64,000 bases of DNA, taken from Candidatus Multivorans sp. Lineage in GTDB: Bacteria > Acidobacteriota > Thermoanaerobaculia > Multivoradales > Multivoraceae. This document shows positions 38,321 to 56,952 of the stretch, in pieces. The notes beneath the pieces are model-generated. The model had not been told where the DNA came from. It did no database searches and was given only the letters and a program-made list of their open reading frames with translations. The position numbers and the translations under genes are program-made. Where the stretch lies: contig OZ245033.1 of assembly GCA_965224025.1 (NCBI GenBank), forward strand, positions 2,656,001 to 2,720,000, written 5' to 3'. Position 1 is the stretch's first letter; each line of letters starts with the position of its first letter.

Positions 38321-38356
38321 AGAGTCCTTAGGTCGGGGAAGCGCTAGAGTTACACC

Positions 38357-38848: not shown

Positions 38849-38850
38849 AA

Positions 38851-38931: not shown

Positions 38932-38994
38932 CGCTGCGGCGGGGCAGCTATGATCACGGTGCGCGAATGAACACGCTGGTTGGAGGGCAGGCAC

Positions 38995-40086: not shown

Positions 40087-40106
40087 TCGGTCCGACCTTT
40101 CGTTGA

Positions 40107-40275: not shown

Positions 40276-40430
40276 TCACGCGGAATGGTATGGCGCCCGG
40301 CTGTACCACGGGAGTGAGAGCAGCTGCCAGTCGCTTGGGCCAGCGGTCAGCACGGTGGAGGGACGGACGAGGGTGACCATACCGTCGCTCCACCGTGCGT
40401 CGCCCGTTGTCGGCGGGTCGGTCGACCCGG

Positions 40431-40727
40431 CTACATACAGATGGTCATGCTCTGGAAGGTCAGGTACATCCCGATGGCGGTCAAGACGGGGGAGCCGACA
40501 ACCTGGCCAGCGGTAGTAAACACCGCTCCGGCAACCGAGTTGGTCCTGCAACTGTGGCGCCGCGCTCCTCCGACCACGCTCGTCAGGTCGGTGGCCGTGA
40601 AGCGGTCGAGGCCATCGTGGCCGATAGTCGATGGTCCGCCCGCTGTCACGGCGTCAGGCGGTATGGCGAAGGAAGCGCCAACGTTCAACACCAGGGCGAT
40701 CAGTGCAATAGCTGAGAATCTCGTCAT
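40431..40727 (-). CDS. Small secreted precursor peptide 1 (signal + GG-type leader + Cys-bridged hydrophobic core)
   Basis: AAAGGA RBS; signal ending GASFA; leader GLDRFTATDLTSVVGG; core ending ICM; paralogous to 41918-42211. Confidence 0.72.
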   Translation of the reverse strand: MTRFSAIALIALVLNVGASFAIPPDAVTAGGPSTIGHDGLDRFTATDLTSVVGGARRHSCRTNSVAGAVFTTAGQVVGSPVLTAIGMYLTFQSMTICM

Positions 40728-40899
40728 GTCCAGGGTTCCTTTCGGTTGTAGAGGATTCGGCAGTCAAGCGGTGGAGGCGGCCGGTAGGCATCTCTCGGCC
40801 CACCTATGGACCAAGACGGAATGGGCGCGGCTGGATTCGTCTCGTGTCCTCGCGTTGCTCAAGGGAAGACGGGCTGCCCGGAAGGAGCGCTATGCATGT

Positions 40900-41592
40900 T
40901 CAGCCGCTGAGCATCTGCTCGCGGCGCTCCGCGCGGGCGAAGGTGAGCGCGATGATGGCGGTAATTATGAGCGCGTAGCCGATGCGGTTCCGGACGGCCA
41001 TCGCGAGCAACTGCTCAGCGTCGGCTCCTTCCACCGTGAGCGGGTTCCAGAACGGCGAAATGCGGAACAGGAACGGGAGTAGGGCAGGCACGCTGACGGC
41101 CAGGCCGAATAGCCCGATGGTTGCCAGGGCGCCGGAAGTCTCGCTGCGGAACAAGGCAGCGAAACCCATGGTCAGTGCCAGACAGAAGACGGCTCCTTGC
41201 GCGGCGCCGTAGAGGGTCTGGAAGACTGGAAAGGCGGTGAAGAATGCGAATGTGAGCACCGCCATCAGGCTCAGGCTGGCAAGCAGGATGAGGCCCGCGG
41301 CGGCGAGCTTCCCAAGCCAGACTCGATGGGCGCCGCCCGGTACGGTGTAGGCGATCTCCAGGGTGTGCTCGTCGAGTTCCCCGGCGATGATCCGGCCGCC
41401 CAGAAACACGGCAAGAGCCGACACCGGCATGCCGATCAGGATGTTCTGGGCTGCGGCGGGTTCAAACCCGGTCTGGCGGGCGGTAACCAGCAAGACCGCC
41501 TGCACGGCAAGCCACGGAAGCGGCAGCAGTGGCAGCAGCCAGTACCGCGGGCCCCCGAGCAGCACGGCGGAGAGACGGATGATGGTGATCAC
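40900..41592 (-). CDS. ABC-2 type permease-like membrane protein (paralog 2)
   Basis: About 6 TM segments; I.GELDEHTLEIAYTVPGG, FRISPFWNP; clearly paralogous to 42472-43161; GTG start 41592. Confidence 0.85.
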   Translation of the reverse strand: MITIIRLSAVLLGGPRYWLLPLLPLPWLAVQAVLLVTARQTGFEPAAAQNILIGMPVSALAVFLGGRIIAGELDEHTLEIAYTVPGGAHRVWLGKLAAAGLILLASLSLMAVLTFAFFTAFPVFQTLYGAAQGAVFCLALTMGFAALFRSETSGALATIGLFGLAVSVPALLPFLFRISPFWNPLTVEGADAEQLLAMAVRNRIGYALIITAIIALTFARAERREQMLSG

Positions 41593-41917
41593 GCCAGAGT
41601 TCCGAGGGTCGCCAGACCGGGGCGGACATGTTTGGGTTCGACGCCAAGGAGCGATTGCTGCGAAAGAAGAGTTGGGAGTGACGCGAGGGCGACGAATACC
41701 AGCGGTGTCCACGCGACGCAGCCGACCGCTGATCGGCGCGTCCGCGTCGTCAGAGGCCCGGCGGCCGGTCCGACGTGGCATCCCGGTTGGTTCACTGGAC
41801 GTCGCCCTCGCGCCCACGCGGGAGGAAGGATATTGGCCCACCGGCGCTCTCGGAAGAGAGAATCCTCATCAATACGATCGCGTGTAGACTCTCGGGTGGC
41901 GCCGGTGGAGAGATTGG

Positions 41918-42211
41918 TTACACGCAGATAGCACCGACAAGGCCGAGGCCGGCACCCTGCCCGATTGGATCCCCTGCGATGGTGGCGGCTACGAAGAGCA
42001 GGTAGCCGAGACCCTTGACGGCCAGAGTGCAAGCTCCCGACCGCCACCCTTCACCGGTCACGGCGACCATGTCGGCATCCGTGAGTTGTTCGAGCCCGGG
42101 ATTGTCCGCGCCCGATGTGTCGCCCGCCACGGCCGTGACAGGGGGTTCTGCGAAGGCGCCGCCGACGCTCAGCACAAGCGCTGCCACTGCGAGAGTTAGA
42201 ACTTTCTTCAT
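41918..42211 (-). CDS. Small secreted precursor peptide 2
   Basis: AAAGGA RBS; signal MKKVLTLAVAALVLSVGGAFA; leader GLEQLTDADMVAVTG; core ending ICV. Confidence 0.78.
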   Translation of the reverse strand: MKKVLTLAVAALVLSVGGAFAEPPVTAVAGDTSGADNPGLEQLTDADMVAVTGEGWRSGACTLAVKGLGYLLFVAATIAGDPIGQGAGLGLVGAICV

Positions 42212-42471
42212 GATTCCTGGTTCCTTTCCGTTTCATTGGTTTGTGTTGCCGTCGACCCCGTTCGGAGAGGCCGACGACGCTGGTAGGCGGTGAGGTCCGG
42301 CGGAAGCCGAGAAGGCTTCGCAGGTCCGGCGACCCGCAGCGCCTCGTGGCGCCGCAGGGACTGTGCCCGCCTATAGACCTAAGACGGAATTCGGAGCGGT
42401 TCTTGTCGCGAGGAACCTGAGAGGGGGGCTGGGTGGCGGTGGATGCGTGTCAGTCGATGGCGGAACCCGGC

Positions 42472-43161
42472 TCAGCCACCGAGCATCTTCTCCCGCCGTT
42501 CCGCTCGGGCGAAGGTAAGTGCCACGATGGCGACGATCGCGAGTGCGATGCCAATACGGTTCTGGACGCTCATGGCGAGCATCCGCGCCGCGTCGGCGTC
42601 CTCGATCGCGAGCGGATTCCATAGCGGCGAAATGCGGAACTGGATAGCGCCGAAGCTGGTGATCAAGCCGTTTAGGCCGAGGAGGCCGATCGTGGCCAGG
42701 GTACCGGCGACCTCGCTGCGGAACAGGGTGGCGAACCCCATCGCGGCAACGAGGTAGAAGACGACTCCCTGGCCCGCGCCGTAGAGGCTCTGGAGGACGG
42801 GGAAAGAGGTGAAGAAGGCGAACGAGACGGCCGCCATGAGAATCATGCTGGAGAGCAGGATCAGGATCGCGGCCGCGAGCTTGCTTAGCCAGACGCGATG
42901 GGCGCCTCCCGGCACGGTGTAGGCAATCTCCAGGCTGTGCTCGTCGAGTTCGCCTGTGATCGTCCGCCCACCCAGGAAGATGGCAAGGACTGCTACCGGC
43001 ACGCCGATCAGGGTGTTCTGGGCCGCCGCGGGCTCGAGCGTGGGCCGTCCCGCAAGCAGTAGCGCTGCCTGGATCGTCAGCCAAACGAGGGGCAGAAAAG
43101 GCAGCAACCAGTAGCGCCGCCCGGCCAGCAGCACCGCGGAGAGACGCAGCACGCCGATCAC
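42472..43161 (-). CDS. ABC-2 type permease-like membrane protein (paralog 1)
   Basis: About 6 TM segments; GELDEHSLEIAYTVPGG; GTGA-coupled to the upstream fusion gene. Confidence 0.85.
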   Translation of the reverse strand: MIGVLRLSAVLLAGRRYWLLPFLPLVWLTIQAALLLAGRPTLEPAAAQNTLIGVPVAVLAIFLGGRTITGELDEHSLEIAYTVPGGAHRVWLSKLAAAILILLSSMILMAAVSFAFFTSFPVLQSLYGAGQGVVFYLVAAMGFATLFRSEVAGTLATIGLLGLNGLITSFGAIQFRISPLWNPLAIEDADAARMLAMSVQNRIGIALAIVAIVALTFARAERREKMLGG

Positions 43162-46100
43162 GCCGGGGTTCCACCGCGCGCCGCCCGCGCCAGCCAGAGG
43201 TAGCCGTCCTCGAGCGTGGGTTCGACCGGTTCGGCGCGTTGATCGGGGCGATCCGCGGCCAGCACGCGCAGGCGGCTGCTGCCGTCGGGCTCGGGTTGGC
43301 GATCAGCGAGCACGGACGTCTGGGGCAGCTCCGGCTCTTCATCTCCGGGCGCCGTCCAGGACCAGACGCGGCCTTCTGCCTCCCGGGACAGCGCCGCCGG
43401 CTCGCCGTCGAACACCATGCGGCCGCCGGTGAGCACCAGCACGCGCTCGCAGGCCACGGCCACGTCCTCGACGACGTGGGTGGAGAAGAGGACGATGCGG
43501 TCCTTGGCCAGGCGCGAGAGCAGGTTGCGGAAGCGGACGCGCTCGCGGGGGTCGAGACCGACGGTCGGCTCGTCGACGACGATGATCGGCGGCAGGCGCA
43601 GCAGCGTGCGGGCCACCGCGACCCGCTGCCGCATGCCGCCGGAGTAGCCACCGATCGGTTCGTCCGCGCGCTCGTCGAGTCCGACCTCGCGCAGCAGGGA
43701 CGCAATGCGCTCGGCTCGCTCCGACGCCTCGATCTGGTAGAGCGCGGCGTAGTACTCGAGGTACTGGCGGGCCGTCAGGCGCGCCGGCAGGCCGGCGTCC
43801 TGCGGCAGGTAGCCGACGTAGCGGGCCAGCCGCTTCCGGACGCTGAGCAGCGGCACGCCGCCCAGCGTGATCCGGCCGCGGGTCGAATCGAGAATGCCGG
43901 TCACCTGGCGGAGCAGGGTCGTCTTGCCGGCACCGTTCGGACCCAGCACGCCGACCATGCCTCGCTCGACTTCGAAGCTCACCGCGGCCAGCGCCTTCAC
44001 CGTGTCGATCGGCAGGTCGAGGCCGAAGATCCGGCTTGCAACCGCGCGCCAGAGGCGGATCAACATGCCGCGCCAGCCCCGTGTGCGCCGCTGGCGCGCC
44101 TCTCGCTGCTCCCGGCGCACCGTCTCGAGGCGCGCCGTGCGACGTCCGAGTTGGATGAAGAGAGTGATGGTGGAGAGGATGGTCACGACGACGAACCCGC
44201 CCACCGCGGGTTCGCTCGCGAGAGCCGGACCGGCGAGGCCCGCGAGAAGCGCCCAGGGCAGCAGGGCGGACAGCACGCCCTCGATGCCGCCCGGCTCGAC
44301 TCGTCCGAGCGCGTCGGCCCGGCCACGGGCACGCCGGACCTCGGTCAGCAACCGGGAAGCGATCAGCAGTGCGGCGATCCAGGCGCCCAGTTGGATCAGG
44401 TCGGCACGAAACCTCAGAGCCATGGCGACCGCGCCGGCGAGCAACAGGAGCAACGGCGGGATGCATTCCCGCGCGTCGGCGGGGTGGAACGCTTCACCGC
44501 CGCGGTCGACCACCTGCCTGGCGAAATCGGTCGACGCCCGCAGCGCCCGGCGCACCGGTCCCGCGAGGCCGTATGTCTTGCGCAGGTGGCGGACCACGAG
44601 GCGGGGCGGTCCGGCGCCGGCCTCCGGCTCCGGCGTCGGCGGCTTCGGCACCAGCCACACGGCGAGCCCGAGCAGCGCGCCGGCGATGAGGACCGTCGTC
44701 GTGATCTGCCAAAGCATGGACTCGATCACGCCGAGCACGAACAACGGGGCGGTGGCCGCGATGACCGCGCCGAGCCAGGTCAGCACCATCCAGGGTCCGA
44801 CGCGGCTGAACAGGTCGTCCAGGCGGCGCAGAAAGACGTAGCCGACCGGGATGACGAGCAGCGTGAGCACGGTCGAGGTCAGAAGACCGCCGATCACGAG
44901 TGTCGCGAAGGGCGGCCAGATCTCGTTCTCGCGTCCGGTGGCGATGGCCAGCGGCGCCAGCGCCGCGATTGTTGTCGCGCTCGTCATCAGCACCGGACGC
45001 GCGCGCTCCCGAACCGCGGCCAGGGCGGCGGCGCCGGCGCTCCAGCCGGCGCCGAGTACACGCTGCTGCATCCGGTCGACGAGCAGGACGGCGGGATTCA
45101 CCGCCAACCCCAGCAGGACGAGCGCCCCGAGCAGCGCCATCGGATCGAGCCCGATGCCTGAGAACATGAGCACCCACAGCGAGCCGAGCAGGGCCAGCGG
45201 CAGGGCCAGCAGGACGAGGATCGGCAGGGTCATCGATTCGAACGCCACCGCCAGAACCAGGAACACGAGCATCACGACCGGGCCGAGGACGCGCCGGAAC
45301 CAGCTCGTGTTCTCGTCCGAGCGGTCGAGCTCGATTGTCGTTCCGGGCGGGCGGTGGACGCTGGCGAGGGCCTCGTCCAGGTTGCGGTCGAACTCCAGCC
45401 GGGCCGCTCCGCTGCTTGGTACGTCGGACGAGACGCTGTAGATGACCTCCCGCTCGCGGCGGCCGTTGTGGTGGGTGATCACCGGGGAAGCCGGCGCGCG
45501 GCGGACCTGCGCCAGCGCCGCCACCGGCAGCACGCCGGCGCCGGTGGAGACGCGCAGCCGGGACAGGCCACTGAGCGACACTTCGCGGTCAGGACTCATC
45601 CCGTCTTCGGGCGTCGCGTCGCTGGGCCGAGCTTCCAGGCGTTGGACGACGATCGGAAGCTCGCGGCCGCTCGGAAGCGGGAAGCCGCTGTTGATGCTCG
45701 TGCCCTCGCGGCCGGCGAGATTCAGCATCGGCAGCACATCGTCGAGCAGCACGCCGAAGGTGTCGAAAGCGCGCCGGTTCGGGCTGACGTGGATCTCCTC
45801 GGGGCCGGGTCGCGAGGAGGGGAAGGCGCCGCTGATCCCCTCGATCTCCTTCAGCCGCTCGGCAACCTCGGCAGCGAGACCGGTCAACTGATCGTTGTCG
45901 TTTCCGGACAGGATGACCTTTTGGGGGCCGCCGCCGAGCAACTCCTGGGCGCCGCCCCCGCCGCCGGGGCCGCCGCCGCGACCGCCCGGGCCTTCGCCTT
46001 CGCCGGGTCGCAGAATCTCGGTGCCGGCGCGCCGGTTCGCGGCCCTGCGTACGAGCTGACGGATTCGCCGCGCGGTCAGTTCCTCGGGACGGTCCTCGAG

Positions 46101-47975
46101 GGGCTCGAGGTGCACCGTCAACGAGCCCCCCTCCTCGCGGATCATGCTTTCGACGCGGTCCACACCGTCGACTTCATGAACCGCTTCCAGGGGCTGAAAG
46201 GCGCGCACCGCGGCATCGAGCGAACTGCGGCTCTCGTCGAGGCGCACCGAGAGCTGGACCTGGTCTGCGATTTCTGCGTCCGGCGACACCGTGTTTCCGA
46301 GCACAAAGGGCAGGGCCACGAGCGCGGTGACGACGACGGCGAGAGCCACCGACGTGACCCAGCTCGCGGGCCGCCTCAATGCCGAGGCGAGAACTCCCGC
46401 GAACAGGATGCGGGTCGGGTCGGGCGGCGCCTGTCCGGCGAAGCGTTCGCGTCGCCGGCGCAGTCGGTCCAGCCGGCGGATTGCCGCGGGCGCGGCCAGA
46501 TGGCGGGCCAGCAGCGGTACGAGACCGATCGCCACCAGCAGGGAACCGAACAGCGGCAGCAGGATCGAGAGGGCGGCGATCGCGATCAGGTTGCGGATGA
46601 ACGACGATCCCAGGTCGACGAGCAACGGCGGCACGAACACGACCGCGGTGGTCACCGACGCGGCGATGATCGCGCGGGCGGTGCGACGAATGCCCCCCGC
46701 CGCGGCGTCGTCGGGACTTCGTCCTCGTTCGAGGCGCCGCTGGACGGACTCGAAGACGACGACGCTGTTGTCGACCAGGAGGCCGACCCCGACCGCCAGG
46801 CCGAAGAGGCTGATCAGGTTCAGCGTCTGGCCCGCCAGATAGAGGAAAGCCAGGGCCGAGGCCAGACTGACCGGCACGGCGATGGCGACAACCGCCACTG
46901 CCCGCCACTGTCGGAGGAAAAGGAACAGGACGGCGAGAGCGATCAGGAAACCGGTCAGACCGAGTTTCTTGAGCCGGTCGATCTGGGTCTCGACGAGCTC
47001 CGCGGCGTCGAAGCTGCTCAGCAGGCGAATGCCCAGCGGCTGGAGATCTTCGTTGATCTCTTCGATTCGGCGGCGGAGGTCGCGGCCGAGGCGAACCAGG
47101 TTCGCACCCTCTTCCTGGAGCACCATGACTCCGACCGAGGGGTCGCCGTTGACCCGGAACAGCGTTTGCCGCCGGCCGGGGCCGACCTCGATTTCGGCGA
47201 CGTGGCGCACCAGGGCCGGCCGGTCCGGCACGATCCGGACTTCGCCCATGGACACCGGCCCGATCGGGCGGCCGTCGAGCATCACCGCCATCCTCCCGGC
47301 CTCGTCCTCCAGGCTGCCGAGGTAGCGCAGGCGGCCGGCCGCGGCGCGCACCGCCGCCGTCACCTGCTCCGTGGTGACGCCGAGCGCGGCACAGCGGTTC
47401 GGGTCGACCCAGACGGTCAACTGGCGCGCCGCGCCGCCGCCGACCATCGCCTGGCTGACGCCCGAAACCGCGGCCAGCCGCGGAGTGACGAGTTCGTCGA
47501 CCAAACCGCGCAGGGCGTTCTGATCGGCCGCGCCGGTGACCTGCAGAACCATGGCGAAACTGGAAAGAAAGCCGGTGTCCTGGGACTGGACATCGAGGAA
47601 GGCATTCCGCGGCTGGGTGCGGGCCAGGTCCGCGGCGATCCGGCGCACCTCCAGCTCGCGCACCTTCAGGTCGACGCCACGCTCGAAGAGGATCGTGAAG
47701 CTGCCGCCGGAGCCGATGACCTCGCCCCAGGTTTCGGCGACCCGCGGCAGGGTCCGTACCCGGGCCTCCAGAGGCATCAGGATCTCCCGCTCGATGGTCT
47801 CCGGTTCGCTGCCCGGGCGGAAGAAGTTGACGTAGAGCTGGTCGCCGGTCAGGGCGGGGAAGAGTTCCACCGGCAACCTTTGCCATGCGAACAGCCCCAT
47901 GATCACCAGCCCCAGGAAGAACATCGCCACGGCGACGGGGCGGCGAATGGCGAGGGTGTCGAGACCGGCTCTCAC
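43158..47975 (-). CDS. RND (AcrB-like) permease fused to a C-terminal ABC ATPase
   Basis: RRPVAV, LPVELFP, GLLVDNSVVV, RARPVLMTS; then GPNGAGKTT, SGGMRQR, VDEP and STH in one 1605-aa ORF. Confidence 0.9.
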   Translation of the reverse strand: MRAGLDTLAIRRPVAVAMFFLGLVIMGLFAWQRLPVELFPALTGDQLYVNFFRPGSEPETIEREILMPLEARVRTLPRVAETWGEVIGSGGSFTILFERGVDLKVRELEVRRIAADLARTQPRNAFLDVQSQDTGFLSSFAMVLQVTGAADQNALRGLVDELVTPRLAAVSGVSQAMVGGGAARQLTVWVDPNRCAALGVTTEQVTAAVRAAAGRLRYLGSLEDEAGRMAVMLDGRPIGPVSMGEVRIVPDRPALVRHVAEIEVGPGRRQTLFRVNGDPSVGVMVLQEEGANLVRLGRDLRRRIEEINEDLQPLGIRLLSSFDAAELVETQIDRLKKLGLTGFLIALAVLFLFLRQWRAVAVVAIAVPVSLASALAFLYLAGQTLNLISLFGLAVGVGLLVDNSVVVFESVQRRLERGRSPDDAAAGGIRRTARAIIAASVTTAVVFVPPLLVDLGSSFIRNLIAIAALSILLPLFGSLLVAIGLVPLLARHLAAPAAIRRLDRLRRRRERFAGQAPPDPTRILFAGVLASALRRPASWVTSVALAVVVTALVALPFVLGNTVSPDAEIADQVQLSVRLDESRSSLDAAVRAFQPLEAVHEVDGVDRVESMIREEGGSLTVHLEPLEDRPEELTARRIRQLVRRAANRRAGTEILRPGEGEGPGGRGGGPGGGGGAQELLGGGPQKVILSGNDNDQLTGLAAEVAERLKEIEGISGAFPSSRPGPEEIHVSPNRRAFDTFGVLLDDVLPMLNLAGREGTSINSGFPLPSGRELPIVVQRLEARPSDATPEDGMSPDREVSLSGLSRLRVSTGAGVLPVAALAQVRRAPASPVITHHNGRREREVIYSVSSDVPSSGAARLEFDRNLDEALASVHRPPGTTIELDRSDENTSWFRRVLGPVVMLVFLVLAVAFESMTLPILVLLALPLALLGSLWVLMFSGIGLDPMALLGALVLLGLAVNPAVLLVDRMQQRVLGAGWSAGAAALAAVRERARPVLMTSATTIAALAPLAIATGRENEIWPPFATLVIGGLLTSTVLTLLVIPVGYVFLRRLDDLFSRVGPWMVLTWLGAVIAATAPLFVLGVIESMLWQITTTVLIAGALLGLAVWLVPKPPTPEPEAGAGPPRLVVRHLRKTYGLAGPVRRALRASTDFARQVVDRGGEAFHPADARECIPPLLLLLAGAVAMALRFRADLIQLGAWIAALLIASRLLTEVRRARGRADALGRVEPGGIEGVLSALLPWALLAGLAGPALASEPAVGGFVVVTILSTITLFIQLGRRTARLETVRREQREARQRRTRGWRGMLIRLWRAVASRIFGLDLPIDTVKALAAVSFEVERGMVGVLGPNGAGKTTLLRQVTGILDSTRGRITLGGVPLLSVRKRLARYVGYLPQDAGLPARLTARQYLEYYAALYQIEASERAERIASLLREVGLDERADEPIGGYSGGMRQRVAVARTLLRLPPIIVVDEPTVGLDPRERVRFRNLLSRLAKDRIVLFSTHVVEDVAVACERVLVLTGGRMVFDGEPAALSREAEGRVWSWTAPGDEEPELPQTSVLADRQPEPDGSSRLRVLAADRPDQRAEPVEPTLEDGYLWLARAARGGTPA

Positions 47976-47988
47976 GTCGCCTTCCGGT

Positions 47989-50900
47989 TCAGGCCCCGGC
48001 CGGGGCGCGGCGGCGCCGGGTCAGTCGCATCGAGTCGAGGATCAGGTAGAGGCAGGGCAGGACGAGGAGCGAGCCGACGGTGGAAGTCAGGATGCCTCCG
48101 ATGATCGTGTACGCCATCGGGCTCCGCAGTTCCGCGGCCTCGCCGGCGCCGAGAGCGAGCGGCGCCAGCACCAGGACGGTGGTCAGAGTCGTCATCAGGA
48201 TCGGCCGCAGCCGGATCGCCGCGGCCCGGGCCAGCGCGGCGTGCCGCTCCATGCCGGCGGCGAGCAGGCGCCGGGCGGTGGCGATCAGCAGGACCGCGTC
48301 GTTCACCGCCACGCCCGCGAGCACGATGAGGCCGAGCAGCGCCATGACCCCGACCGGCCGCCCGAGGAAGCCGAGGGTGCAGGCGACGCCGACCAGAGCC
48401 AGGGGGATCGAGAACAGCACCGTGAGCGGTTGGAGCAGGGACTCGAACGTTCCGGCCAGGACCATCAGCACGAGAACGAGTGCCAGCAGGCCCGCCCAGC
48501 GCAGTTCGCCGACGGCGCGCTCGCGTTCCTCCTCCTCGCCGGCCAGACGGACCCCCAGACCGGAGGGCAGGTCGGTTGCCGCGATCGCCTCGCCGGCTGC
48601 CGCGACAGCGCGCGGGTAGTCGCTGTCCTCGGCGACCCGGGCGGTCACCTGGGCGACGCGGCGCTGGTCGCGGCGGAAGACCTCGCGGGCGCCCTCGGCG
48701 GGGACGAAGCGGGCGACCTGGCCGAGGGCGAGATCCGCGCCGGCGTTGCTTGTGAAGCGCAGTTCGGCGAGTTCTTCGGGCCGCGGCTGGGGCAGAGAGA
48801 GGACGACATGGCGCTCCTCGTCTCCGGTCGAGAGCAGGGTGACCCTGCGGCCGTCGAGTGCGGACTGGAGCACTCGGGCGATCGTCTCCAGGCCGACGCC
48901 CAGACCGTCGGCCATCGCGCGGTCGAGTTCGATCCGCAGTTCCGGCGGCCCGCCCTCGAACGAGGAGCGGACGTTCCAGAGTTCGGATTGTGCGGCGAGG
49001 GCGTCGCGCAGTCTGGTGGCCGCCAGGCGCAGGTCGGGTAGCGACTGGCCGGCGATCTCGACCACGATCGGCGGCCCCGCGGAGCCAAGCGCGCGCGACA
49101 GGGCGGAGGCCCCGACCTCCCACTCGATCTCGGTACCCGGCAGGTCTTCGAAGTTGGGCTGCAGGGCGGCCACGATCTGGCCGCCGGTCGGCCCTTCGGC
49201 GGACATCCGGACGAGCAGGCGGGCCGTGTTCTCTTCGGTCAGCTCCGTGGTCACCAGCCGATCGTCCTCGGGCAGGCGGCCGACCTCGGCCTGGATCGCC
49301 TCCAGGTGCTCGCCGGCAGCCTGCCGGACCGCCTCTTCCAGCGTCGCAACGGCGCCGGCGGTGGCCTCGACGCGCTGGCCGGGCGGGCCCACCATGCGCA
49401 CCGAGAACTGCCGCGGGTCGGCGGGCGGCAGCAGCTCGCTGCCGAGTCCGAGCAGAACGTGGACGCCGCCGGCGGCGGCGAGCACCGCCGTCGCGACGAC
49501 CAGCCAGCGCAGCCGGAGCAGGGAGAGAACCAGGCGCTCGACGGCGCCGAAGGCCCAGCCCAGCGGGCGCGCCTCGTCTTCGTCGGGGTCCGCGGTTGTG
49601 CCGGTGGTTGCCGCCTCCGATGCCTCCTCAGTGGCCTCGGGCGCGGCGGTTTCCGGCTTCGCGCGCGGCAGGAGCCAGCGCGACAGGGCCGGAATCAGCA
49701 TGATCGCGACCGCCAGGGAGGCGCCGAGAGAGGCGGTGACGGTGAAGGCGATGCCCTCGATCAGACGCGCCGCCAGCCCCTGGACGAAGAGGACGGGTAG
49801 GAAGACCACGCAGGTGGTGAGCGTCGAGGCGGCGATTGCGCCCGCGACCTCGCCCGTGCCCCTGGCGGCCGTGTCGGCTGCCGAAGCGCCGGGGCGGTGG
49901 CGGCGGTGGATGCTCTCGACAACGACGATCGCGTTGTCCACCAGCATGCCGGCGCCGAGCGCCAGCCCGGCCAGGGTGATGATGTTCAGGGAGTGCTCCC
50001 ACAGCCGCATCGCGAACAGGGCGACGAACAGGGACACCGGCACTGCCGAGGCCACGACCACGGTCGGACCGAGGGAGCGCAGGAACAGCGCCAGGACGAC
50101 GACGGCGAGGGCGATGCCGATCAGGGCCGCGTTCAACAGATCGTCCATCGCGTCCTCGACCAGGGCGGCGTCGTCGTTGACCATCGAGACGCTGACCCGG
50201 GGCAGGTCGCGCTCCAGGTCGTCGAGCGCCGCGCGCACGGTGCGCGAGACCTCCACGGTGTTCGCGCCGGCCTCCTTGAACACCTGGAGACCGACGCCCT
50301 CCCGGCCGTTCACCCGCACCAGGTGGTCGATCTCGGCGTGGGCGAGTTCGACCTCGGCGACATCGGAGACCCGGATCGGCTGACGGACCTGCTGGCCTCC
50401 CCCCACCTGCTGAGTGCGGTAGCGCACGACGACCCGCTCGACATCGCGGGAGTTCCGGAACCGGGAGATGCCGCGAACGAGATAGACTTGACCGCCGTCC
50501 TCCAGGGTGCCGGCGTCGATGTCGACGTTCTCGGCTACGAGTCGCTGCTCGAGTTGATTCAACGTGACGCCGAACGCCTGCAGGCGGTAGCGGTCGACGC
50601 GTACACGGACCTCCAGGTCGCGTCCGCCGAGGACCCGGACCTCGGCGACGTCGGCAAGCTGCTCCATGGCCGGCGCCACTTGGCGGCGCGCCAGGCGGCG
50701 GAGCTCGGCGAGATCGGGTCCTTCGGGCTCGGCGGCCAGCCCCAGGGTGATCACCGGCGACTGCCGCGGATCGAGTTGACGGACCAGGACCTCGTCGACT
50801 TCGGGGTCGGCGGCGACCGGATTGACCGCCTTCTGCACCTCGATCAGCGCCAAGTCCATGTCGGCGTCCCAGTCGAAGCGGACGGTGGCGATCAGGCGGC

Positions 50901-51183
50901 CGGTGCGGGCCACCTGGTGAACCTCGCGGAGGCCGCGCACCGTGAACAGGCGCTGCTCGACCTGCTCGCCGTAGAGCCGCTCCATCTCGGTCGGCGGCCG
51001 GTCGCCGGAACGCACGGCGACGACGATGGTCGGCGAACGCAGGTCGGGCAGGAGGTCGATCGGCAGTTCGCGCCACGACATCCAGCCCACCAGGGCGAAG
51101 GCCAGGGCGGTGACGGTGACCGCTACGGGCCGGCGCGCAGCCAGGCGGGCGGGACCGAAGGTCTCACCGGATGTTCGAGTCAT
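47989..51183 (-). CDS. RND (AcrB-like) efflux permease
   Basis: RRPVAV, LPIDLLP, GMLVDNAIVVVE, RLRPILMTT. Confidence 0.93.
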   Translation of the reverse strand: MTRTSGETFGPARLAARRPVAVTVTALAFALVGWMSWRELPIDLLPDLRSPTIVVAVRSGDRPPTEMERLYGEQVEQRLFTVRGLREVHQVARTGRLIATVRFDWDADMDLALIEVQKAVNPVAADPEVDEVLVRQLDPRQSPVITLGLAAEPEGPDLAELRRLARRQVAPAMEQLADVAEVRVLGGRDLEVRVRVDRYRLQAFGVTLNQLEQRLVAENVDIDAGTLEDGGQVYLVRGISRFRNSRDVERVVVRYRTQQVGGGQQVRQPIRVSDVAEVELAHAEIDHLVRVNGREGVGLQVFKEAGANTVEVSRTVRAALDDLERDLPRVSVSMVNDDAALVEDAMDDLLNAALIGIALAVVVLALFLRSLGPTVVVASAVPVSLFVALFAMRLWEHSLNIITLAGLALGAGMLVDNAIVVVESIHRRHRPGASAADTAARGTGEVAGAIAASTLTTCVVFLPVLFVQGLAARLIEGIAFTVTASLGASLAVAIMLIPALSRWLLPRAKPETAAPEATEEASEAATTGTTADPDEDEARPLGWAFGAVERLVLSLLRLRWLVVATAVLAAAGGVHVLLGLGSELLPPADPRQFSVRMVGPPGQRVEATAGAVATLEEAVRQAAGEHLEAIQAEVGRLPEDDRLVTTELTEENTARLLVRMSAEGPTGGQIVAALQPNFEDLPGTEIEWEVGASALSRALGSAGPPIVVEIAGQSLPDLRLAATRLRDALAAQSELWNVRSSFEGGPPELRIELDRAMADGLGVGLETIARVLQSALDGRRVTLLSTGDEERHVVLSLPQPRPEELAELRFTSNAGADLALGQVARFVPAEGAREVFRRDQRRVAQVTARVAEDSDYPRAVAAAGEAIAATDLPSGLGVRLAGEEEERERAVGELRWAGLLALVLVLMVLAGTFESLLQPLTVLFSIPLALVGVACTLGFLGRPVGVMALLGLIVLAGVAVNDAVLLIATARRLLAAGMERHAALARAAAIRLRPILMTTLTTVLVLAPLALGAGEAAELRSPMAYTIIGGILTSTVGSLLVLPCLYLILDSMRLTRRRRAPAGA

Positions 51184-51222: not shown

Positions 51223-52329
51223 CTATTGGGAGACCCGGACGCGTGTACCGTCGGTCAGGGTCTCGAGACCGCGTACGACGACCCGCTCGCCGAGCTCGAG
51301 CCCCTGGCGAATCTCGGTGATCTCGTCGTCGCCGAGGCCGAGAACGACTTCGCGCCGCACCGCGCGCTGGCCGTCGAGGACGAAGACGACGCGCCGGCCG
51401 CCGCGCTCGGTAACCGCCTCGCGCGGAATGACGGGGACGTCGTTTCGCTGCTCGACGACCAGGGTCACTTCGACGAACATGCCCGGCCGCAGCAGGCCGC
51501 CGGGATTGCGCACGGCGACCTCGGCGCGGAAGGTGTGGGCGACCGGGTCGACCTCGGGGGACAGGCGAACGACCGCGCCTGCGAACGTCTGGCCCTCCCA
51601 GGCGAAGTGCCTGAGCCGGCCCTGCTGCCTGGGGTGGACCCGCGCCAGTTCGGGGCCCACGAGGTCGATGTCGGCGACCAGGGAGTCGACCGGAGCGATC
51701 CGGGCCACCTGGAAGCCCTGGGAGACGAGCTGGCCGTCGGCGATCGGCATGCCGTTCGGGTCGCGCGCGAGTTCCATCAGCACACCGCCGATCGGAGTCA
51801 GCATCTTCGCGCGGTCCTCGGTCAGGAGGCTCTGCTCCCAGGTCGCCTTCGCGTCCTCGAGCGCGATCTCGGCGCGGCGCAGTTCCTCGGCACTGATCAG
51901 TTCCTGCTCGAACAGCTTGGCGCGGGCGTCTCGTTCGGCCTCGGCGCCCAGGTAGGCCTGGTGGGTTGCTTCGACCCGGGCCGCAAGGCGTGCGTCCTCG
52001 CCGGTGACCTCCGCGATCATCTGGTCGGGGACGACGCGGTCGCCCTCGGCCAGCCGGTCGCCGGAACCGTTGCGGCCGATCAGCAGTCTCCCGGGCGTTT
52101 CGACCTGCAGGACGATGCTCTCGGCCGCTCGCAGAGTGCCGGTGGCGACGATCAGATCCTCGACGCTGCCGGTTTCGACCTCGGCCGCGGTGACCGGCAC
52201 CAGGAAGTCGACGGGGTCCGTGCTGCCGCCGCCTTCGCAGGCGACGATCGCGGCGCAGGCCGCAATCGCAATTGCGAGGCCCGCGCGCCGGAAGTTGGCG
52301 GTCGGGCGGGATGGCTGCCGCGCGCTCAT
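51223..52329 (-). CDS. RND periplasmic adaptor (MFP), lipoprotein
   Basis: Lipobox IVAC; TPIGGV, LRPGMFV, VIPREAV, GLELGERVVVRG; ATGA overlap with the upstream gene. Confidence 0.92.
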   Translation of the reverse strand: MSARQPSRPTANFRRAGLAIAIAACAAIVACEGGGSTDPVDFLVPVTAAEVETGSVEDLIVATGTLRAAESIVLQVETPGRLLIGRNGSGDRLAEGDRVVPDQMIAEVTGEDARLAARVEATHQAYLGAEAERDARAKLFEQELISAEELRRAEIALEDAKATWEQSLLTEDRAKMLTPIGGVLMELARDPNGMPIADGQLVSQGFQVARIAPVDSLVADIDLVGPELARVHPRQQGRLRHFAWEGQTFAGAVVRLSPEVDPVAHTFRAEVAVRNPGGLLRPGMFVEVTLVVEQRNDVPVIPREAVTERGGRRVVFVLDGQRAVRREVVLGLGDDEITEIRQGLELGERVVVRGLETLTDGTRVRVSQ

Positions 52330-55300
52330 GGCCCCGCGCCCCCGGTCTCGGCACGGCCGGCGGCGGCGCCGTTGTCGAGCCGCACGAAGCGCACGGCGTC
52401 CGCGGCGACCGCTCTGCCGGAGGTCTCGTCGCTCAGGACCAGTTCGGTCGGGCCGCCGGCCAGATCGAAGTCTCCGAGCACCGCCCATCCGGTTCCCGCG
52501 GCCGCGGCGTCGAAGTCGATCGGCCGGGAGACGCCGCCGTTCTGCAGTTCGAGGTCGTAGGTACCGAGATTCAGGCCCAGGTTCACCGAGATCCGCACGC
52601 CGTCGCCGTCGTTCCCTCTTCGCTGAGCGTTTCCTCCATCGTTGCCGACCCGCACTTCCCGACGCACGCCCGCGGCGCCGGCTGGCAGCGGCGAGAGCGA
52701 CGGTACGTGCAGTTCGACTCGCCAGCGGCCGTCTGCCGGCAACTCCGTCCGGTAGATCGCGCGGCTGGTCCCTTCGCCCGCTGGCGCCAGGGCGGTCGTG
52801 CGGCGGTAGCGCCCCCAACTCGTGGGCTGTTCGTAGCGCGACCATTCTGTCGGCGTTCCGCCGAAGCTCTGGTAAACGAGCAGGCCCTGATCCGTCTGGT
52901 TCGACGGTGCGAAGAAGCCGGCGAGACCGCCCTGCAGCCGGAAGCCGCCGGTATCCGCTTCATCCGTCTCGATCGAGAAGCCGGGGTCCAGGTCGTCGAC
53001 GACGACCATGTCGGTCGCTGATCGCAGGAAGGCGGGCAGCCAGTCGGCCGGTCGCGTGCCGCGTAGCGGTTCGGCCTCGACGATCGATTCGTCGTCGACA
53101 TCAGGCAGATCGATCGGGAACTCCCGGCGGTTCAGCGACAGATACGGGGAAGCGAGCATCCTGCCCGGCGCCCTGGACGTGACCAGGCCGAATTCGACGG
53201 AGGTGTTTCCCGGGATCAGAGTTGGCTCGCTGGTCTCCCAGCGCACCCCGCTCGGTGCGCGAACGGCGTAGCGGAGCCGGAAGAGGCCGGGCGCTTTCTC
53301 GCCGTTGTGGACGAAGAGACGGGTCTGGTACTGCGGCAGGCCCTGGTCGTCGTCCGCCAGCCGCACGAGTTCGGCTGCGGAGACGACGAAGCCGGGCAGG
53401 TCGGTCTGGTGGAGGAAGTCGCCGACCAGGCCGGCGAGGTCCACGCCGGCTTCCTGAGCGGCCCGTTCGAGGTCGGCGGCGGTGAAGGTCGAGCCCCGGT
53501 GGTCGCGCATGAGGTTGGCGATCATCGCGGCGGTCCGTTCCCGGCCGGCGCCGTCCAGGATTGCGGTGGCCAGGGCCGAGGTCTTCAGGTAGAGCGCGTT
53601 GAGCGCCTTCTTCGGCTCCTCTTCGACCTCCATTTTCGTCAGCGAGGCGCCGAGCACGGCGTCCCAGACTTCGGGGCGGTCCGTGAGGCTCCTCACGATC
53701 GAACTGGAGATGGGTGCGCCGCCTCCGCCGAGCTGGCCCAACACGGCGCCCTGTACCACGCTGCCGATCGTCCAGCCGAACTCGCGGTCGAACAGGTGGG
53801 CCGAGAAGTACGATTCGCCGCCGCTCACCAGCCGGTTCACCAGGTTGTTGCACAGTTCGTCGAGCGCCAGCGCCTCCGGACCGCGGGCGGCGGTCTGATA
53901 CAGGAACAGGTTGCGGATGCCGCCCACCTCCACGTTGCCGCCCGAGAAGTCGTTGCGGAAGAACTGCTGCAGTCTGAAGGCCTTTGCCCGCGCCAGACCG
54001 CCCTCCTGCTCCTCGAACTGCTCAGGGTTGCGGAACGGGAACTCGAAGCGAGCGGTCGGCAGGCTGCTCTCGCTGATCAGCACCATGCCCGGCGGTGCGC
54101 GCTCGGTGTCCATGCGCCAACCGCCGCCGTAGGAACGCAGCGTCCAGGGCACTTCGACCAGGGTGAGTTGGCGGTAGGGGTAGGGCAGACCGAGCTCGCG
54201 GGCAGTGGCGAAGCGCTCGGCGGCGACCGCTTCGATCTCTTCCCTGGCATCGGCGAAGAACTCCACGTTTCTGAGATGGCGGGGGTGGACGAGCAGTTCG
54301 ATCTCGACGCCCTCGATCTCCGTCGTCCGGCGATCGAACCGTCCGGCGATCAGGGCCGCTTCAGGCACGACCCCCACCGGTGCGAACCGTTGCCGGTCGC
54401 CTGCCGCCTCGCCTCTGCCTGGCCCGGCGACCGTCCAGCCCGAGGGGGCGCCGACCTCCAGGTCGAGTTCGAAGAAGTCTCTGGGACGCCTTCGCGGATC
54501 GGCGAGGCCAACTGAAGCGCCGGGGCGTGGCAGCCAGGCCAGCGCGGCGGGCAGCGCGACGTAGCGACGCTCCGCAAAGCCGTTCAGGGCGCCGAGAATG
54601 ATGATCTGCGCGTCCTGGAACTTGATCCGGTTGAAATCGATCGCGGAATCCAGGTGGGCGAAGCGAAGGTCAGGCCGTCCGTGGGCGCGCAGGCGAAGGT
54701 CGACGGCTTGGCCCGCGGCCTGCGAGCGCCCGAGGTCGACTTCGAGCAGGCCGGCGCCGTGGTTGAAGGCGAGCGGCGCGCCGGCAGAGTCCTCGACGGC
54801 ATCGACGTCAAGGCCGGGGTTCAGGCTGAAGAGGGCCCGCGAACCTCCGGCGGCGAGGAACCGGACGTTGACGTCGAGGGTCAGACGACCCCGCGGTTCG
54901 ATGTCGACGGAGCCGTGGATCCGCTCCAGGTCAAGGACCGGTTCCTCCTGACGTTCCGCGTGGGCGATCCGCCAGTCGTCGATCTCGTCGACCTGGTTGG
55001 TGGCGGTCACCGCGGCGGCCGCGATCGTGCCGATGGCCGCGACCAGAAGGCCGGCGCCGGCGGTGGCCCACAGGCGTCGCCGGGCGTCGTCGAGCCGGGG
55101 ATGGACGGCGACGGCGACCGCAAGCAGACCAACGGCCAGCGCCGCGACCGTGGCCCGGTTCATCAGGTTCAGGGCGGTCCATATCTGGGGCGCGACTTCG
55201 GACGGATTGCTGCCGAAGCCGCCCTGGAGCGACAGGATGGGCAGGATGTAGGTCGGTACGCGGAAGGAGAGAATCCATGGACCGATGGCCAGCCCGAGGC

Positions 55301-55874
55301 CAAGAAGCGCGGCCACCAGGCGGTTGCGGCTCAGGAGCGACGCCACCTGGACGAAGGCGATGGTCATGGCCAGCGCCGGCAGCGCCTCGGTCAGCAGGTA
55401 GGCCCAGACGGAACTCCAGATCGCCGGTTCGCCCACGTACCAACCGAGCGCCACTCCGAGATGGCCGAAGCCCTGGATGAGCATCATGCCGATGAAGGCG
55501 ACGCCCCAGATCAGGATCAGGGCGCCCAGGAACCTGCCCAGGACGAGTTCCGCGTTCGAATAGGGCCGGCTGTCCAGGACCTCGATCACGCGGTCGCGCC
55601 GGTCCCGTGCGCGCACGTCGAAGGCCAGAAAGACGACGCCGATCGCCAGGACCATCGTCTGGATCGAACCCATCTGGGCGAGCAGGAACTTCGGGCTGAA
55701 CGAGCCGACCGTCGCCGACCAGGACGAGAAGAGGCCGTGGATAGCCCAGTAGTAGCCGTACGACAGCAGGCCGATGAGGATTGCAAGGCCCGAGAACAAC
55801 CAGAAGCGGAACAGCCGGCGGATGGTGCGCATCTCGGCGCGGGCCAGGGACCAGACGGCGGCGAGTGAGATCAC
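52326..55874 (-). CDS. ABC permease fused to a degenerate M1-aminopeptidase-like ectodomain and a C-terminal carbohydrate-binding-like beta domain
   Basis: About 7 TM segments with RDRRDRVIEVLDSRP; FSLNPGL, PYPYRQLTLVEVP, YLK; no HExxH; tail GWAVLGDF...AADAVRFV; GTG start 55874. Confidence 0.78.
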   Translation of the reverse strand: MISLAAVWSLARAEMRTIRRLFRFWLFSGLAILIGLLSYGYYWAIHGLFSSWSATVGSFSPKFLLAQMGSIQTMVLAIGVVFLAFDVRARDRRDRVIEVLDSRPYSNAELVLGRFLGALILIWGVAFIGMMLIQGFGHLGVALGWYVGEPAIWSSVWAYLLTEALPALAMTIAFVQVASLLSRNRLVAALLGLGLAIGPWILSFRVPTYILPILSLQGGFGSNPSEVAPQIWTALNLMNRATVAALAVGLLAVAVAVHPRLDDARRRLWATAGAGLLVAAIGTIAAAAVTATNQVDEIDDWRIAHAERQEEPVLDLERIHGSVDIEPRGRLTLDVNVRFLAAGGSRALFSLNPGLDVDAVEDSAGAPLAFNHGAGLLEVDLGRSQAAGQAVDLRLRAHGRPDLRFAHLDSAIDFNRIKFQDAQIIILGALNGFAERRYVALPAALAWLPRPGASVGLADPRRRPRDFFELDLEVGAPSGWTVAGPGRGEAAGDRQRFAPVGVVPEAALIAGRFDRRTTEIEGVEIELLVHPRHLRNVEFFADAREEIEAVAAERFATARELGLPYPYRQLTLVEVPWTLRSYGGGWRMDTERAPPGMVLISESSLPTARFEFPFRNPEQFEEQEGGLARAKAFRLQQFFRNDFSGGNVEVGGIRNLFLYQTAARGPEALALDELCNNLVNRLVSGGESYFSAHLFDREFGWTIGSVVQGAVLGQLGGGGAPISSSIVRSLTDRPEVWDAVLGASLTKMEVEEEPKKALNALYLKTSALATAILDGAGRERTAAMIANLMRDHRGSTFTAADLERAAQEAGVDLAGLVGDFLHQTDLPGFVVSAAELVRLADDDQGLPQYQTRLFVHNGEKAPGLFRLRYAVRAPSGVRWETSEPTLIPGNTSVEFGLVTSRAPGRMLASPYLSLNRREFPIDLPDVDDESIVEAEPLRGTRPADWLPAFLRSATDMVVVDDLDPGFSIETDEADTGGFRLQGGLAGFFAPSNQTDQGLLVYQSFGGTPTEWSRYEQPTSWGRYRRTTALAPAGEGTSRAIYRTELPADGRWRVELHVPSLSPLPAGAAGVRREVRVGNDGGNAQRRGNDGDGVRISVNLGLNLGTYDLELQNGGVSRPIDFDAAAAGTGWAVLGDFDLAGGPTELVLSDETSGRAVAADAVRFVRLDNGAAAGRAETGGAGP

Positions 55875-55888
55875 TGTCGGGCCCTCCT

Positions 55889-55917
55889 GGGAACGCGGGC
55901 GTCTCGCCCGCATCCGG
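55889..55917 (+). repeat. REP-like family B copy
   Basis: gggaacgcgggcgtctcgcccgcatccgg inside the export operon. Confidence 0.85.
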
Positions 55918-55944
55918 CTCGGGGCCAGACCACGGCGAGCGGCA

Positions 55945-56952
55945 TCACGGTTGAGCCTCCTTGCCGGACACGCCTCCGTCGGGTGGCGCTGTTGCGCCGG
56001 GAGACCCTGGGCCCTCCAAGTCTTCGGCAAGTCCGGCGCCTTCGCTCTCGCCGAAGTGCTTCTCGGTCACGATGGCCTCGGCGCGGCCGCGCGCGACCAT
56101 GAAGGCGAGGTATCCCTCCTCGAGGGTCGGCGACGAGGCGATCCGGGCGTCCGCCGGCACGCCGCCGGGCGCCGCGACGCCGCGGTAGGTCGTTTCGTTC
56201 ATGCTGGCGGTGCGCGAGACGATCTCGAAGCCGCCCTCGGGTTGCGGCGCGGATGTCGGCAGGGTCAGCTCGAAGACTTGGCCCTGGGCGCGCTCGAGCA
56301 GGCCTGACGGAGAGCCGCGAAAGACGATCTTGCCCGCGTCGAGCAGGGCGAGGTCGCTGCAGCCGGTACCCAGGTCGGCGACGATGTGGGTAGAGAGGAT
56401 GATCGTCCGTTCGCGGCCGAGGTTCGCCATCAGTTGGCGGAAGCGCAGGCGCTCCTCGGGATCCAGGCCGACCGTGGGTTCGTCGACCACCAGCAGGCGG
56501 GGTTGGTGGATCAGCGCCTGGGCGATGCCGAGGCGGCGGGTCATGCCGCCGGACAGCTTCTTCACCTTGCGGTGGGCGACCTCGCCGAGGCCGACGCTGT
56601 CGAGGACGGAGTCGACCCGGGCCCGGCGGGCGCCGCGGCCGTCCAGGCCCGAGAGCTCGGCCAGGGTGTCGAGGACTTCCTCCACGCGGTGCAGGCGCCA
56701 GGCGCCGAACTCCTGCGGAAGGTAGCCCAGGTGTGCGCGGACGCCGCGTCGCTGAGAGACCACGTCGTGGCCGAAGACCGTTGCCGCCCCGCCGCTGGGC
56801 TTGAGCAGCGTGCAGACGATCCGCATCAGGGTGCTCTTGCCGGCGCCGTTGGGGCCCAGCAGACCGAAAAGGCCGGCGCCGATCTCCAGATCGACGCCGT
56901 TGAGGGCTACTGTGCCGCCGCGATAGACGTGGCGGAGGCCGCGGGCGGCCAC
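55945..56952 (-). CDS. ABC transporter ATP-binding protein
   Basis: GPNGAGKST, LSGGM, VDEPTVGLDPEER, STH, PTLEEGYL. Confidence 0.94.
   Translation of the reverse strand: MAARGLRHVYRGGTVALNGVDLEIGAGLFGLLGPNGAGKSTLMRIVCTLLKPSGGAATVFGHDVVSQRRGVRAHLGYLPQEFGAWRLHRVEEVLDTLAELSGLDGRGARRARVDSVLDSVGLGEVAHRKVKKLSGGMTRRLGIAQALIHQPRLLVVDEPTVGLDPEERLRFRQLMANLGRERTIILSTHIVADLGTGCSDLALLDAGKIVFRGSPSGLLERAQGQVFELTLPTSAPQPEGGFEIVSRTASMNETTYRGVAAPGGVPADARIASSPTLEEGYLAFMVARGRAEAIVTEKHFGESEGAGLAEDLEGPGSPGATAPPDGGVSGKEAQP

Follow-up and report, generated by a model that had tools for sequence, protein, structure and literature searches.

Two acidobacterial precursor peptides with a Sec-type signal ahead of a double-glycine-type leader: candidates for polymorphic bacteriocin-like peptides

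Introduction

How can a peptide carry both a Sec-type signal and a double-glycine leader? Leaders of this kind mark peptides in the cytoplasm for export and are recognised there by the peptidase domain that a dedicated ATP-binding cassette (ABC) exporter carries. The question is raised by two small genes, pep1 and pep2, on the minus strand of a 64,000-nucleotide (nt) stretch of DNA of Candidatus Multivorans sp. (contig OZ245033.1), hereafter the window; unless a locus is named, positions are those of the whole window. A preliminary description of this DNA had pointed to the signal ahead of the leader as unusual. The rest of the genome offers an explanation, as it encodes C39 peptidases of the double-glycine type that, judged by their sequences, appear to face outward. 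We lean towards the reading that the two products are polymorphic peptides similar to microcins or class II bacteriocins, which would be exported by Sec, cleaved and closed by a disulfide in the periplasm, and served by permease cassettes for self-protection or export.

Results

Two precursor genes of tripartite design

The products of pep1 and pep2 (97 and 98 amino acids (aa); Table 1) had been described as paralogous precursors in three parts. The open reading frames (ORFs) bear this out: the two products are 33% identical over 91 residues (BLASTP E 4e-12) and the same layout is kept in the homologues. All the details quoted at the time are found in the translations. The N-terminal hydrophobic segment ends in A-x-A and is followed by x-P-P; the pro-region closes with a Gly-x motif in pep1 and Gly-Gly in pep2; the hydrophobic tail that follows contains two Cys separated by 34 (pep1) or 36 (pep2) residues, a G-D-P or G-S-P in mid-core and the terminus I-C-V or I-C-M, respectively.

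To collect relatives, a word-indexed search and a profile search were used. The former returned 25 homologous proteins of 95-101 aa. The latter, run against 1.84 billion representative proteins, gave 27 clusters at E <= 0.001; 26 of the 27 are 90-115 aa long and the remaining one (P0035) is a protein of 2430 aa with 11 matched stretches. About 50 homologues share the signal-like segment, the GG-type leader and a Cys-bracketed core of about 43 aa, nearly all of them from one Acidobacteriota genus; the named records are assigned to 'Candidatus Multivorans', Thermoanaerobaculia or Acidobacteria metagenome-assembled genomes (MAGs). Among 301 sampled Acidobacteriota genomes, the family is present in six: that of the window, four of the five others of the genus and, as a marginal match, one elsewhere. 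The genes pep1 and pep2 are real, because they have homologues, lie in an array that is syntenic in 11 genomes, show a low ratio of non-synonymous to synonymous substitution rates (dN/dS) in the leader and have decayed remnants beside intact copies (see below).

Conserved features were assessed in two alignments, A1 and A2, the second of 29 sequences. A hydrophobic 15-mer (mean Kyte-Doolittle value of at least 1.98) begins at residues 4-9 in 27 of the 29 members of A2; it is preceded by 0-3 Lys or Arg (at least one in 26/27) and typically ends in A-x-A. Both Cys are invariant in A1 and A2, with a spacing of 32-37 residues, and the last Cys is the penultimate residue in 42/50 sequences. The consensus of double-glycine leaders comprises, counted back from the start of the core, a hydrophobic residue at P-12, Ser or Thr at P-11, Glu or Asp at P-8, Leu or Met at P-7, Ile or Val at P-4 and Gly at P-2. 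The motif was counted in 51 unique sequences, 50 of them anchored on the Gly at P-2, with about 8 rows mis-anchored at an earlier Gly. Leu was found at P-12 in 40/50, Thr or Ser at P-11 in 31/50, Asp or Glu at P-8 in 37/50, Met or Leu at P-7 in 40/50 and Val, Leu, Ile or Met at P-4 in 47/50; the Gly at P-2 is present in every sequence of A1 and in nearly every one of A2. By its residues, the family leader thus conforms to the consensus at P-12, P-11, P-8, P-7, P-4 and P-2. It does not occupy the usual N-terminal position, with removal in the cytoplasm by an exporter C39 domain, as a signal-like segment stands ahead of it.

The core had been proposed to form a helical hairpin, and structure prediction agrees. 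The AlphaFold2 model of pep1 (29-sequence alignment) has a mean predicted local distance difference test (pLDDT) value of 70, and 86-91 in the core blocks, with helices at residues 3-19 (signal), 45-52 (leader), 54-79 and 82-92 and a turn at G-D-P. The predicted hairpin places both Cys at its open end, which is consistent with a disulfide that would staple the core. No match better than E 3.2 was obtained when the model was searched against the PDB. The highest score in the Protein atlas was 0.86, to unnamed clusters only (threshold for a lead, 0.9). Scanning 38000-58000 against Rfam gave no match, and a promoter and terminator scan of 40200-43400 gave no promoter-like site and two terminator-like sites within genes, which is chance level.

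Putatively outward-facing C39 peptidases encoded elsewhere in the genome

The genome contains two matches to PF03412, the C39 peptidase family. The open frames that hold them are short, of 269 and 282 aa; as both are standalone, the genome yielded no ABC exporter with a peptidase domain. The gene of the first peptidase (214 aa, E 1.6e-28, cutoff 22 bits) immediately precedes that of a third member of the family of pep1 and pep2. The second (200 aa, E 2.4e-31) is preceded by the gene of a thioredoxin-like protein with a C-G-N-C motif.

Both qualify as members of the C39 family: Q60, C66, H140 and D155 are invariant in all 12 C39 sequences aligned, and the nearest relatives of solved structure are the double-glycine proteases LahT150, PCAT1 and ComA (6mpz, 4ry2, 3k8u; E 1e-21 to 3e-16). 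Each of the 12 also has an N-terminal hydrophobic 15-mer after 1-6 Lys or Arg. Under the positive-inside rule, this arrangement would place the C39 domain outside the cytoplasm, so that the domains likely face outward, putatively into the periplasm. Since the only C39 peptidases of the genome are standalone and apparently oriented in this way, they are the likely answer to the presence of a Sec signal ahead of a double-glycine leader.

The association between peptidase and peptides recurs in relatives. In all seven relatives examined, the pair formed by the thioredoxin-like gene and the C39 gene is present and similar peptides follow the C39 gene; the C-G-N-C motif and the N-terminal hydrophobic segment of the thioredoxin-like protein are kept in the window's own genome and in the seven. 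The leader/core junctions of the C39-adjacent peptides in relatives closely resemble that of pep1, and the profile of the window family matches peptides beside the second type of C39 in two genomes (E 5e-7 and 9.7e-4). Outside the genus, two or more other Acidobacteriota families (L027, L029) likewise have anchored standalone C39 peptidases with similar peptides.

Prediction of a complex between the C39 domain and residues 22-97 of pep1 gave a score of 0.36, compared to 0.00 for the best of three controls, a result graded as 'weak support'. The runs agreed in at least 77% of contacts, with a partner pLDDT of at least 47. Of 80 solved complexes, 58 attained the mark applied, and of 110 mismatched pairs, 2; among scores of 0.60 or under, only 7 of the 80 solved complexes reached it, together with both mismatches. 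Since similar complexes have already been solved, this pass may reflect memory.

Two observations concern the surroundings of these genes. The first C39 gene and the third peptide gene form a two-gene module (L011:7795-10503; G000:C1:3367795-3370503) beside fragments of IS3-type transposase genes (HTH_Tnp_1, HTH_21), and a matching pair is found, by coordinates, in genome G191; combined, these features suggest that the module is mobile. The second peptide locus (L019:9060-16323; G000:C1:1803060-1810323) comprises the thioredoxin-like gene, the anchored C39 and three small ORFs with signals, the first rich in Pro and Cys and lacking the motif, the other two with a GG or GA motif and Cys-bracketed, Gly/Ala-rich tails. 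Next in order come genes for two polytopic membrane proteins, 540 and 445 aa long and belonging to no Pfam family, then for an ABC ATPase and for a protein with a Yip1 domain.

Replacement of core cassettes at the leader/core junction

In the window each peptide gene follows a permease gene (perm1 or perm2), and this peptide/permease array is syntenic in 11 genomes, that of the window included. We compared the window with 10 related loci, giving 12 peptide modules. The first-position peptide occurs with discrete core types, A (with variants A2 and A3), B, C, D, E and G. Identity is 53-95% among leaders and 23-51% among cores of differing type.

The DNA of these loci locates the change. Between L003 and L005, identity is 85-100% through the upstream permease, the spacer, the signal and the leader; past the leader/core junction, in the core and the spacer after it, the value is 33-58%, and in the next permease about 70%. 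Between L005 and L006, which carry the same core type, the stretch from the upstream gene to the end of the core is 75-98% identical, and a single 60-base window further downstream gives 53%. The diversity of cores between genomes is thus mainly due to replacement of whole cassettes, with the breakpoint at the leader/core junction.

Co-variation of cores and permeases was measured over the 12 modules. Core identity was not correlated with that of the upstream permease (Mantel r -0.01, p 0.46), and with that of the downstream permease r was 0.31 (p 0.041). Among the 10 pairs of modules with cores at least 60% identical, the downstream permeases are 82-91% identical in 8, whereas in the other 56 pairs they never exceed 80%. 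The upstream permease was considered as a cognate partner and rejected on the same Mantel value, copies 96-98% identical preceding unrelated cores (33-44%). Permeases of the perm1 type form one clade whatever the core type downstream, and perm2 clusters with the permeases found downstream of type-A cores in other genomes.

The cores of the two peptides had been described as strongly different from each other, and diversifying selection had been proposed. Between genomes, strong variation is seen in the first-position peptide and not in the pep2 type. The latter, found at the last or a late position of the array in seven other genomes, is 69-77% identical in four and 56-57% identical in three of them (BLASTP, aligned part). 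Only the first-position peptide is therefore hypervariable, the pep2 type being comparatively well, or at least fairly, conserved. Diversifying selection was not demonstrated. Leader dN/dS is 0.13-0.50 (six pairs of four type-A-like peptides); within type A, where 8-14 non-synonymous and 3-5 synonymous changes were available, it is 0.84-1.10 for the core compared to 0.13-0.34 for the leader, and for the pep2 type (alignment of five sequences, window included) it is about 0.75. A core value near 1 on so few changes is not decisive for positive selection, and cassette replacement is the main source of core diversity.

Traces of other events are visible in the arrays. In four genomes, decayed remnants of a further peptide type, which retain part of the signal and the pro-region and have no core, lie after the middle permeases (Table 1). 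At L070:4450-6484, in one relative, a two-gene insertion resembling IstA/IstB (IS21-type, by eye) lies between the first peptide gene and the next permease gene; it splits the array, and the permease has lost its first ~23 residues.

The array is an addition to a transporter operon

The pep1/pep2 pair forms the 3' end of an efflux operon whose genes (Table 1) encode pumps of the resistance-nodulation-division (RND) type and ABC components. The two ABC-2-like permeases are 68% identical; the listed perm2 ORF extends to 41841, and similarity to perm1 starts at a GTG at 41592. The stop of the gene for the RND-ABC fusion overlaps the start of perm1. In this fusion, residues 8-1049 correspond to an AcrB-type RND permease and residues ~1331-1530 to an ABC ATPase; the protein also has additional hydrophobic segments. 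Its C-terminal part has 1329 long homologues at E <= 1e-5, and among those listed PF00873 and PF00005 are both present in 120/120, most of about 1600 aa; their sources include Holophagales, Thermoanaerobaculia, Acidobacteriota and one Pseudomonadales MAG. The ORFs of the HlyD-type protein and of the 1234-aa protein overlap by about 520 nt, which means that one start is mis-set; the true HlyD start probably lies within the listed ORF.

Table 1. Coordinates of the peptide precursors, their parts, the operon genes and the decayed remnants
Feature	Position (nt)	Strand	Residues	Description
pep1	41918..42211	-		97-aa precursor ORF; aligned with 25 homologues
pep1 signal-like segment	42149-42211		1-21	
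pep1 leader	42050-42148		22-54	
pep1 core	41921-42049		55-97	key residues G53 (P-2), C61, C96
pep2	40431..40727	-		98-aa paralogous precursor ORF
pep2 signal-like segment	40665-40727		1-21	
pep2 leader	40566-40664		22-54	G-G at end
pep2 core	40434-40565		55-98	Cys-x36-Cys
perm1	42472..43161	-		229-aa ABC-2-like permease; conserved position-1 permease; ABC2_membrane_2 E 0.001, 18.9 bits
perm2	40900..41592	-		230-aa ABC-2-like permease paralogue; ABC2_membrane_2 E 5.7e-5, 23 bits
RND-ABC fusion	43158..47975	-		1605 aa; ACR_tran E 1.2e-141, ABC_tran E 6.7e-27; NCBIfam GldA/DrrA-like ATPase
Second AcrB-type RND permease	47989..51183	-		1064 aa; ACR_tran E 3.5e-198
HlyD-type membrane-fusion (periplasmic adaptor) protein	51223..52845	-		HlyD_D23 E 3e-15, HlyD_3 E 8.2e-7
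ABC-2 permease region with C-terminal Golvesin_C	52326..56030	-		1234 aa; ABC2_membrane_2 E 2.5e-7, Golvesin_C E 7.3e-9
Separate ABC ATPase	55945..56952	-		head of the same-strand gene row; ABC_tran E 3e-29
Decayed peptide remnants	L002:8892-9050; L005:11438-11596; L006:11162-11560; L003:11310-11582			

The same operon exists without peptides. The RND-ABC fusion is followed by a single permease, and by no peptide gene, in G211, which belongs to the same genus, and at the three distant Acidobacteriota loci checked. At 11 loci no small ORF with a signal and Cys was found beside single permeases with a pattern filter, and a permissive profile search gave nothing better than E 1.8. These peptide-less operons indicate that the peptide/permease array was added to an older transporter operon; the array is inserted between the first permease gene and a convergent conserved gene. 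A triple fusion of RND, ABC and permease was considered for the distant loci and dismissed, as at L046, L049 and L055 the permease lies in another frame than the end of the RND-ABC fusion.

The far flank of the array consists of two convergent ORFs, then an RNR-like gene and a phosphodiesterase gene. The convergent ORFs, at 38980-40086 (+) and 38357-38848 (+), encode 368 and 163 aa and are 74-92% identical in relatives; neither matches a Pfam or NCBIfam family, and the 368-aa product has a signal-like N-terminus.

Discussion

A proposed route through the periplasm

How would such peptides be made? On the reading to which we lean, the N-terminal signal would direct the precursor to Sec for passage through the inner membrane, as its composition suggests. 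A membrane-anchored, outward-facing standalone C39 peptidase would then read the double-glycine-type leader and cut after the conserved Gly-x, and the two invariant Cys would be joined, and the hairpin of about 43 aa stapled, by the thioredoxin-like protein with its CxxC motif or else by the general oxidation machinery; this second step is suggested by the genes that occur together elsewhere in the genome and in related genomes. Finally, the ABC-2 permeases, powered by the RND-fused ATPase, would clear the peptide from the membrane of the producer, for self-protection, export or both, and its passage over the outer membrane may be the task of the RND pumps together with the HlyD adaptor. The core, the spacer and the next permease would be exchanged between strains as a cassette, in the manner of toxin-immunity systems, the leader and the first permease remaining constant. 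A more specific version can be put forward only tentatively, and we regard it as possible and rather doubtful: strain-specific toxin cores would swap together with a cognate ABC-2 permease on a shared RND-fused ATPase, the anchored C39 would act after Sec export with a thioredoxin-like partner dedicated to it, and the RND pump would expel the peptide.

Several points weigh against a bacteriocin-like role and this route. Both C39 genes are distant from the window peptides, at about 0.67 and 0.89 Mb on the same contig. P-1 is Gly in 18/50 and Ala in 10/50 sequences, the others having Val, Glu, Arg, Lys or Thr (about 8 rows being mis-anchored), and pep1 itself has Glu at this position, where pep2 has Gly; such residues are atypical at P-1 of C39 substrates, where Gly, Ala or Ser is usual. 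Annotation by family is sparse: pep1 and pep2 match no Pfam family, the best NCBIfam match is bactofencin_A, to the leader and cleavage region of pep2 (E 0.11, 12.9 bits, cutoff 35), the thioredoxin-like protein scores 24.1 bits for Redoxin against a cutoff of 26.6, and perm1 and perm2 both fall under the ABC2_membrane_2 cutoff of 27.2 bits. The link between core and downstream permease is statistically weak and plain physical linkage could yield the same pattern; the two exceptions to the match both involve L004, and pep2, the terminal peptide, has no permease downstream. No gene for a TolC-like or other outer-membrane channel is present in the window, all 13 OEP matches lying elsewhere in the genome. 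Furthermore, the existence of peptide-less operons implies that the primary job of the operon need not concern peptides.

Other readings of the array

Could the peptides be signals rather than toxins, an option that the preliminary description also raised? In strain-specific signalling peptides (pherotypes), the constant leader would direct processing and the variable mature part would be sensed by the co-varying downstream permease or by a distant receptor. Discrete core types carried on a constant leader, with the core type co-inherited with the next membrane protein, are what such a system would produce, and discrete types with a linked membrane protein resemble the logic of ComC/ComD pherotypes. 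However, no histidine kinase or regulator gene adjoins the array, whose neighbours are the transporter genes, the convergent ORFs and the RNR-like and phosphodiesterase genes, and the partner that co-varies is an ABC-2-like permease, not a sensor. Hydrophobic, Gly/Ala-rich cores of about 43 aa are also more typical of membrane-active peptides, and we consider signalling unlikely.

The location of the genes raises a second alternative, in which the peptides assist or regulate the ABC-2/RND transporter as membrane subunits, much as other small proteins bind efflux pumps, the hairpin staying in the inner membrane and the 'leader' forming a periplasmic tail. The peptides do always occur within the transporter operon, one per permease, and their cores are hydrophobic and predicted to be helical. 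Against this, near-identical upstream permeases (96-98%) are found with unrelated cores (33-44%), Glu, Arg and His are present in several of the core types, and the second helix spans only about 11 residues. Moreover, the leader fits a protease recognition motif, similar peptides lie beside C39 genes with no RND pump adjacent, and the same operon occurs free of peptides in other genomes. A role as transporter subunits is accordingly improbable in our view.

Secreted structural peptides, that is surface, matrix or amyloid-like subunits processed by C39 in parallel to the Fap system of Pseudomonas, are very improbable, even though the cores are rich in Gly and Ala and the one periplasmic C39 that has been studied, FapD, serves amyloid secretion according to the available part of PMC5557850. 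No Fap-like gene was noticed beside either C39 gene, and conflict systems account better than structural subunits for hypervariable cores that are swapped in cassettes and have permeases linked to them. Lastly, GC-rich DNA yields many spurious long ORFs (62 are listed in 7 kb), but chance untranslated frames are hardly conceivable here, given frames intact across genomes, invariant Cys and Gly, a signal-like N-terminus, a leader dN/dS below 1 and the decayed remnants.

Meaning of a possible second maturation route

In the literature searched, supplementary lists lying outside the search, no description was found of double-glycine peptides with a Sec signal that are matured by an exported C39, in Acidobacteriota or elsewhere; the names of the organism did not occur in the text of the literature among the matches listed. 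If the favoured reading of bacteriocin-like peptides is true, these genes would represent a second maturation route for microcin-like peptides, in which the leader is a periplasmic pro-domain. They would provide candidate substrates for the periplasmic C39 class and, on the more specific and rather doubtful version, a first class of natural substrates for FapD-like C39 peptidases, and uncultured Acidobacteriota would hold a reservoir of disulfide-stapled, membrane-active peptides.

Comparison with known systems

Class II microcins and bacteriocins share with the window peptides the leader positions, the hydrophobic, Gly/Ala-rich and apparently unmodified core of about 43 aa and a Cys pair capable of forming a disulfide. 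The systems are also alike in that a C39 of the LahT/PCAT1/ComA family is encoded in the genome and in that a membrane-protein gene follows the structural gene. They differ in that a Sec-type signal here precedes the leader, the C39 is standalone and anchored at its N-terminus, and P-1 is often charged. In addition, the small immunity protein and the pair of peptidase-containing ABC transporter (PCAT) and membrane-fusion protein of class II bacteriocin systems are replaced here by ABC-2-like permeases in an RND/ABC operon.

The peptidases themselves may be compared with FapD of the Fap system of Pseudomonas, a periplasmic standalone C39 with a Sec signal whose substrate is unknown; in the part of the source available, the Fap proteins are without canonical C39 leader sequences and the periplasmic C39 class is called 'yet to be characterised' (PMC5557850). 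Like FapD, the C39 peptidases described here are standalone, and they have an N-terminal hydrophobic segment that may act as a signal or anchor. Unlike the situation with FapD, candidate substrates with a canonical-looking leader adjoin the C39 genes here, and no Fap-like context was seen.

For the route beyond the inner membrane, the available excerpt of PMC8277102 describes how MacAB-TolC exports enterotoxin II, which is delivered by Sec, cleaved and disulfide-bonded, from the periplasm. The steps of Sec export, periplasmic cleavage, disulfide formation and uptake by a pump are the same as those proposed here from the genes. The two peptides are not related in sequence, however, and the window has an RND plus ABC-2 pump rather than one of the MacB type, a GG-type pro-region, and an export by the pump that is conjectural.

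The accessory protein of pediocin is thioredoxin-like. Clusters for bacteriocins with disulfides, of the pediocin or bactofencin type and for glycocins, also bring together a C39, a thiol-disulfide protein and Cys-containing peptides, as far as the available parts of two reports go (PMC5465099, PMC12457901). Those systems are Gram-positive, use fused PCATs and make a peptide that has no Sec signal. A further source, PMC3482391, was set aside as not relevant, as its available part concerns C39-like toxin domains only.

Polymorphic toxin-immunity loci show the pattern found in the arrays: the 5' part is constant, the 3' 'warhead' is swapped together with the next gene, and decayed remnants are kept. 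LanFEG-type ABC-2 transporters serve self-protection against peptides. Unlike in toxin-immunity and LanFEG systems, the putative immunity function here would fall to a single permease that shares the RND-fused ATPase, and its association with the core is statistically weak. With its swap point between leader and core and its linked permease, the array would represent a natural example of modular toxin-immunity exchange.

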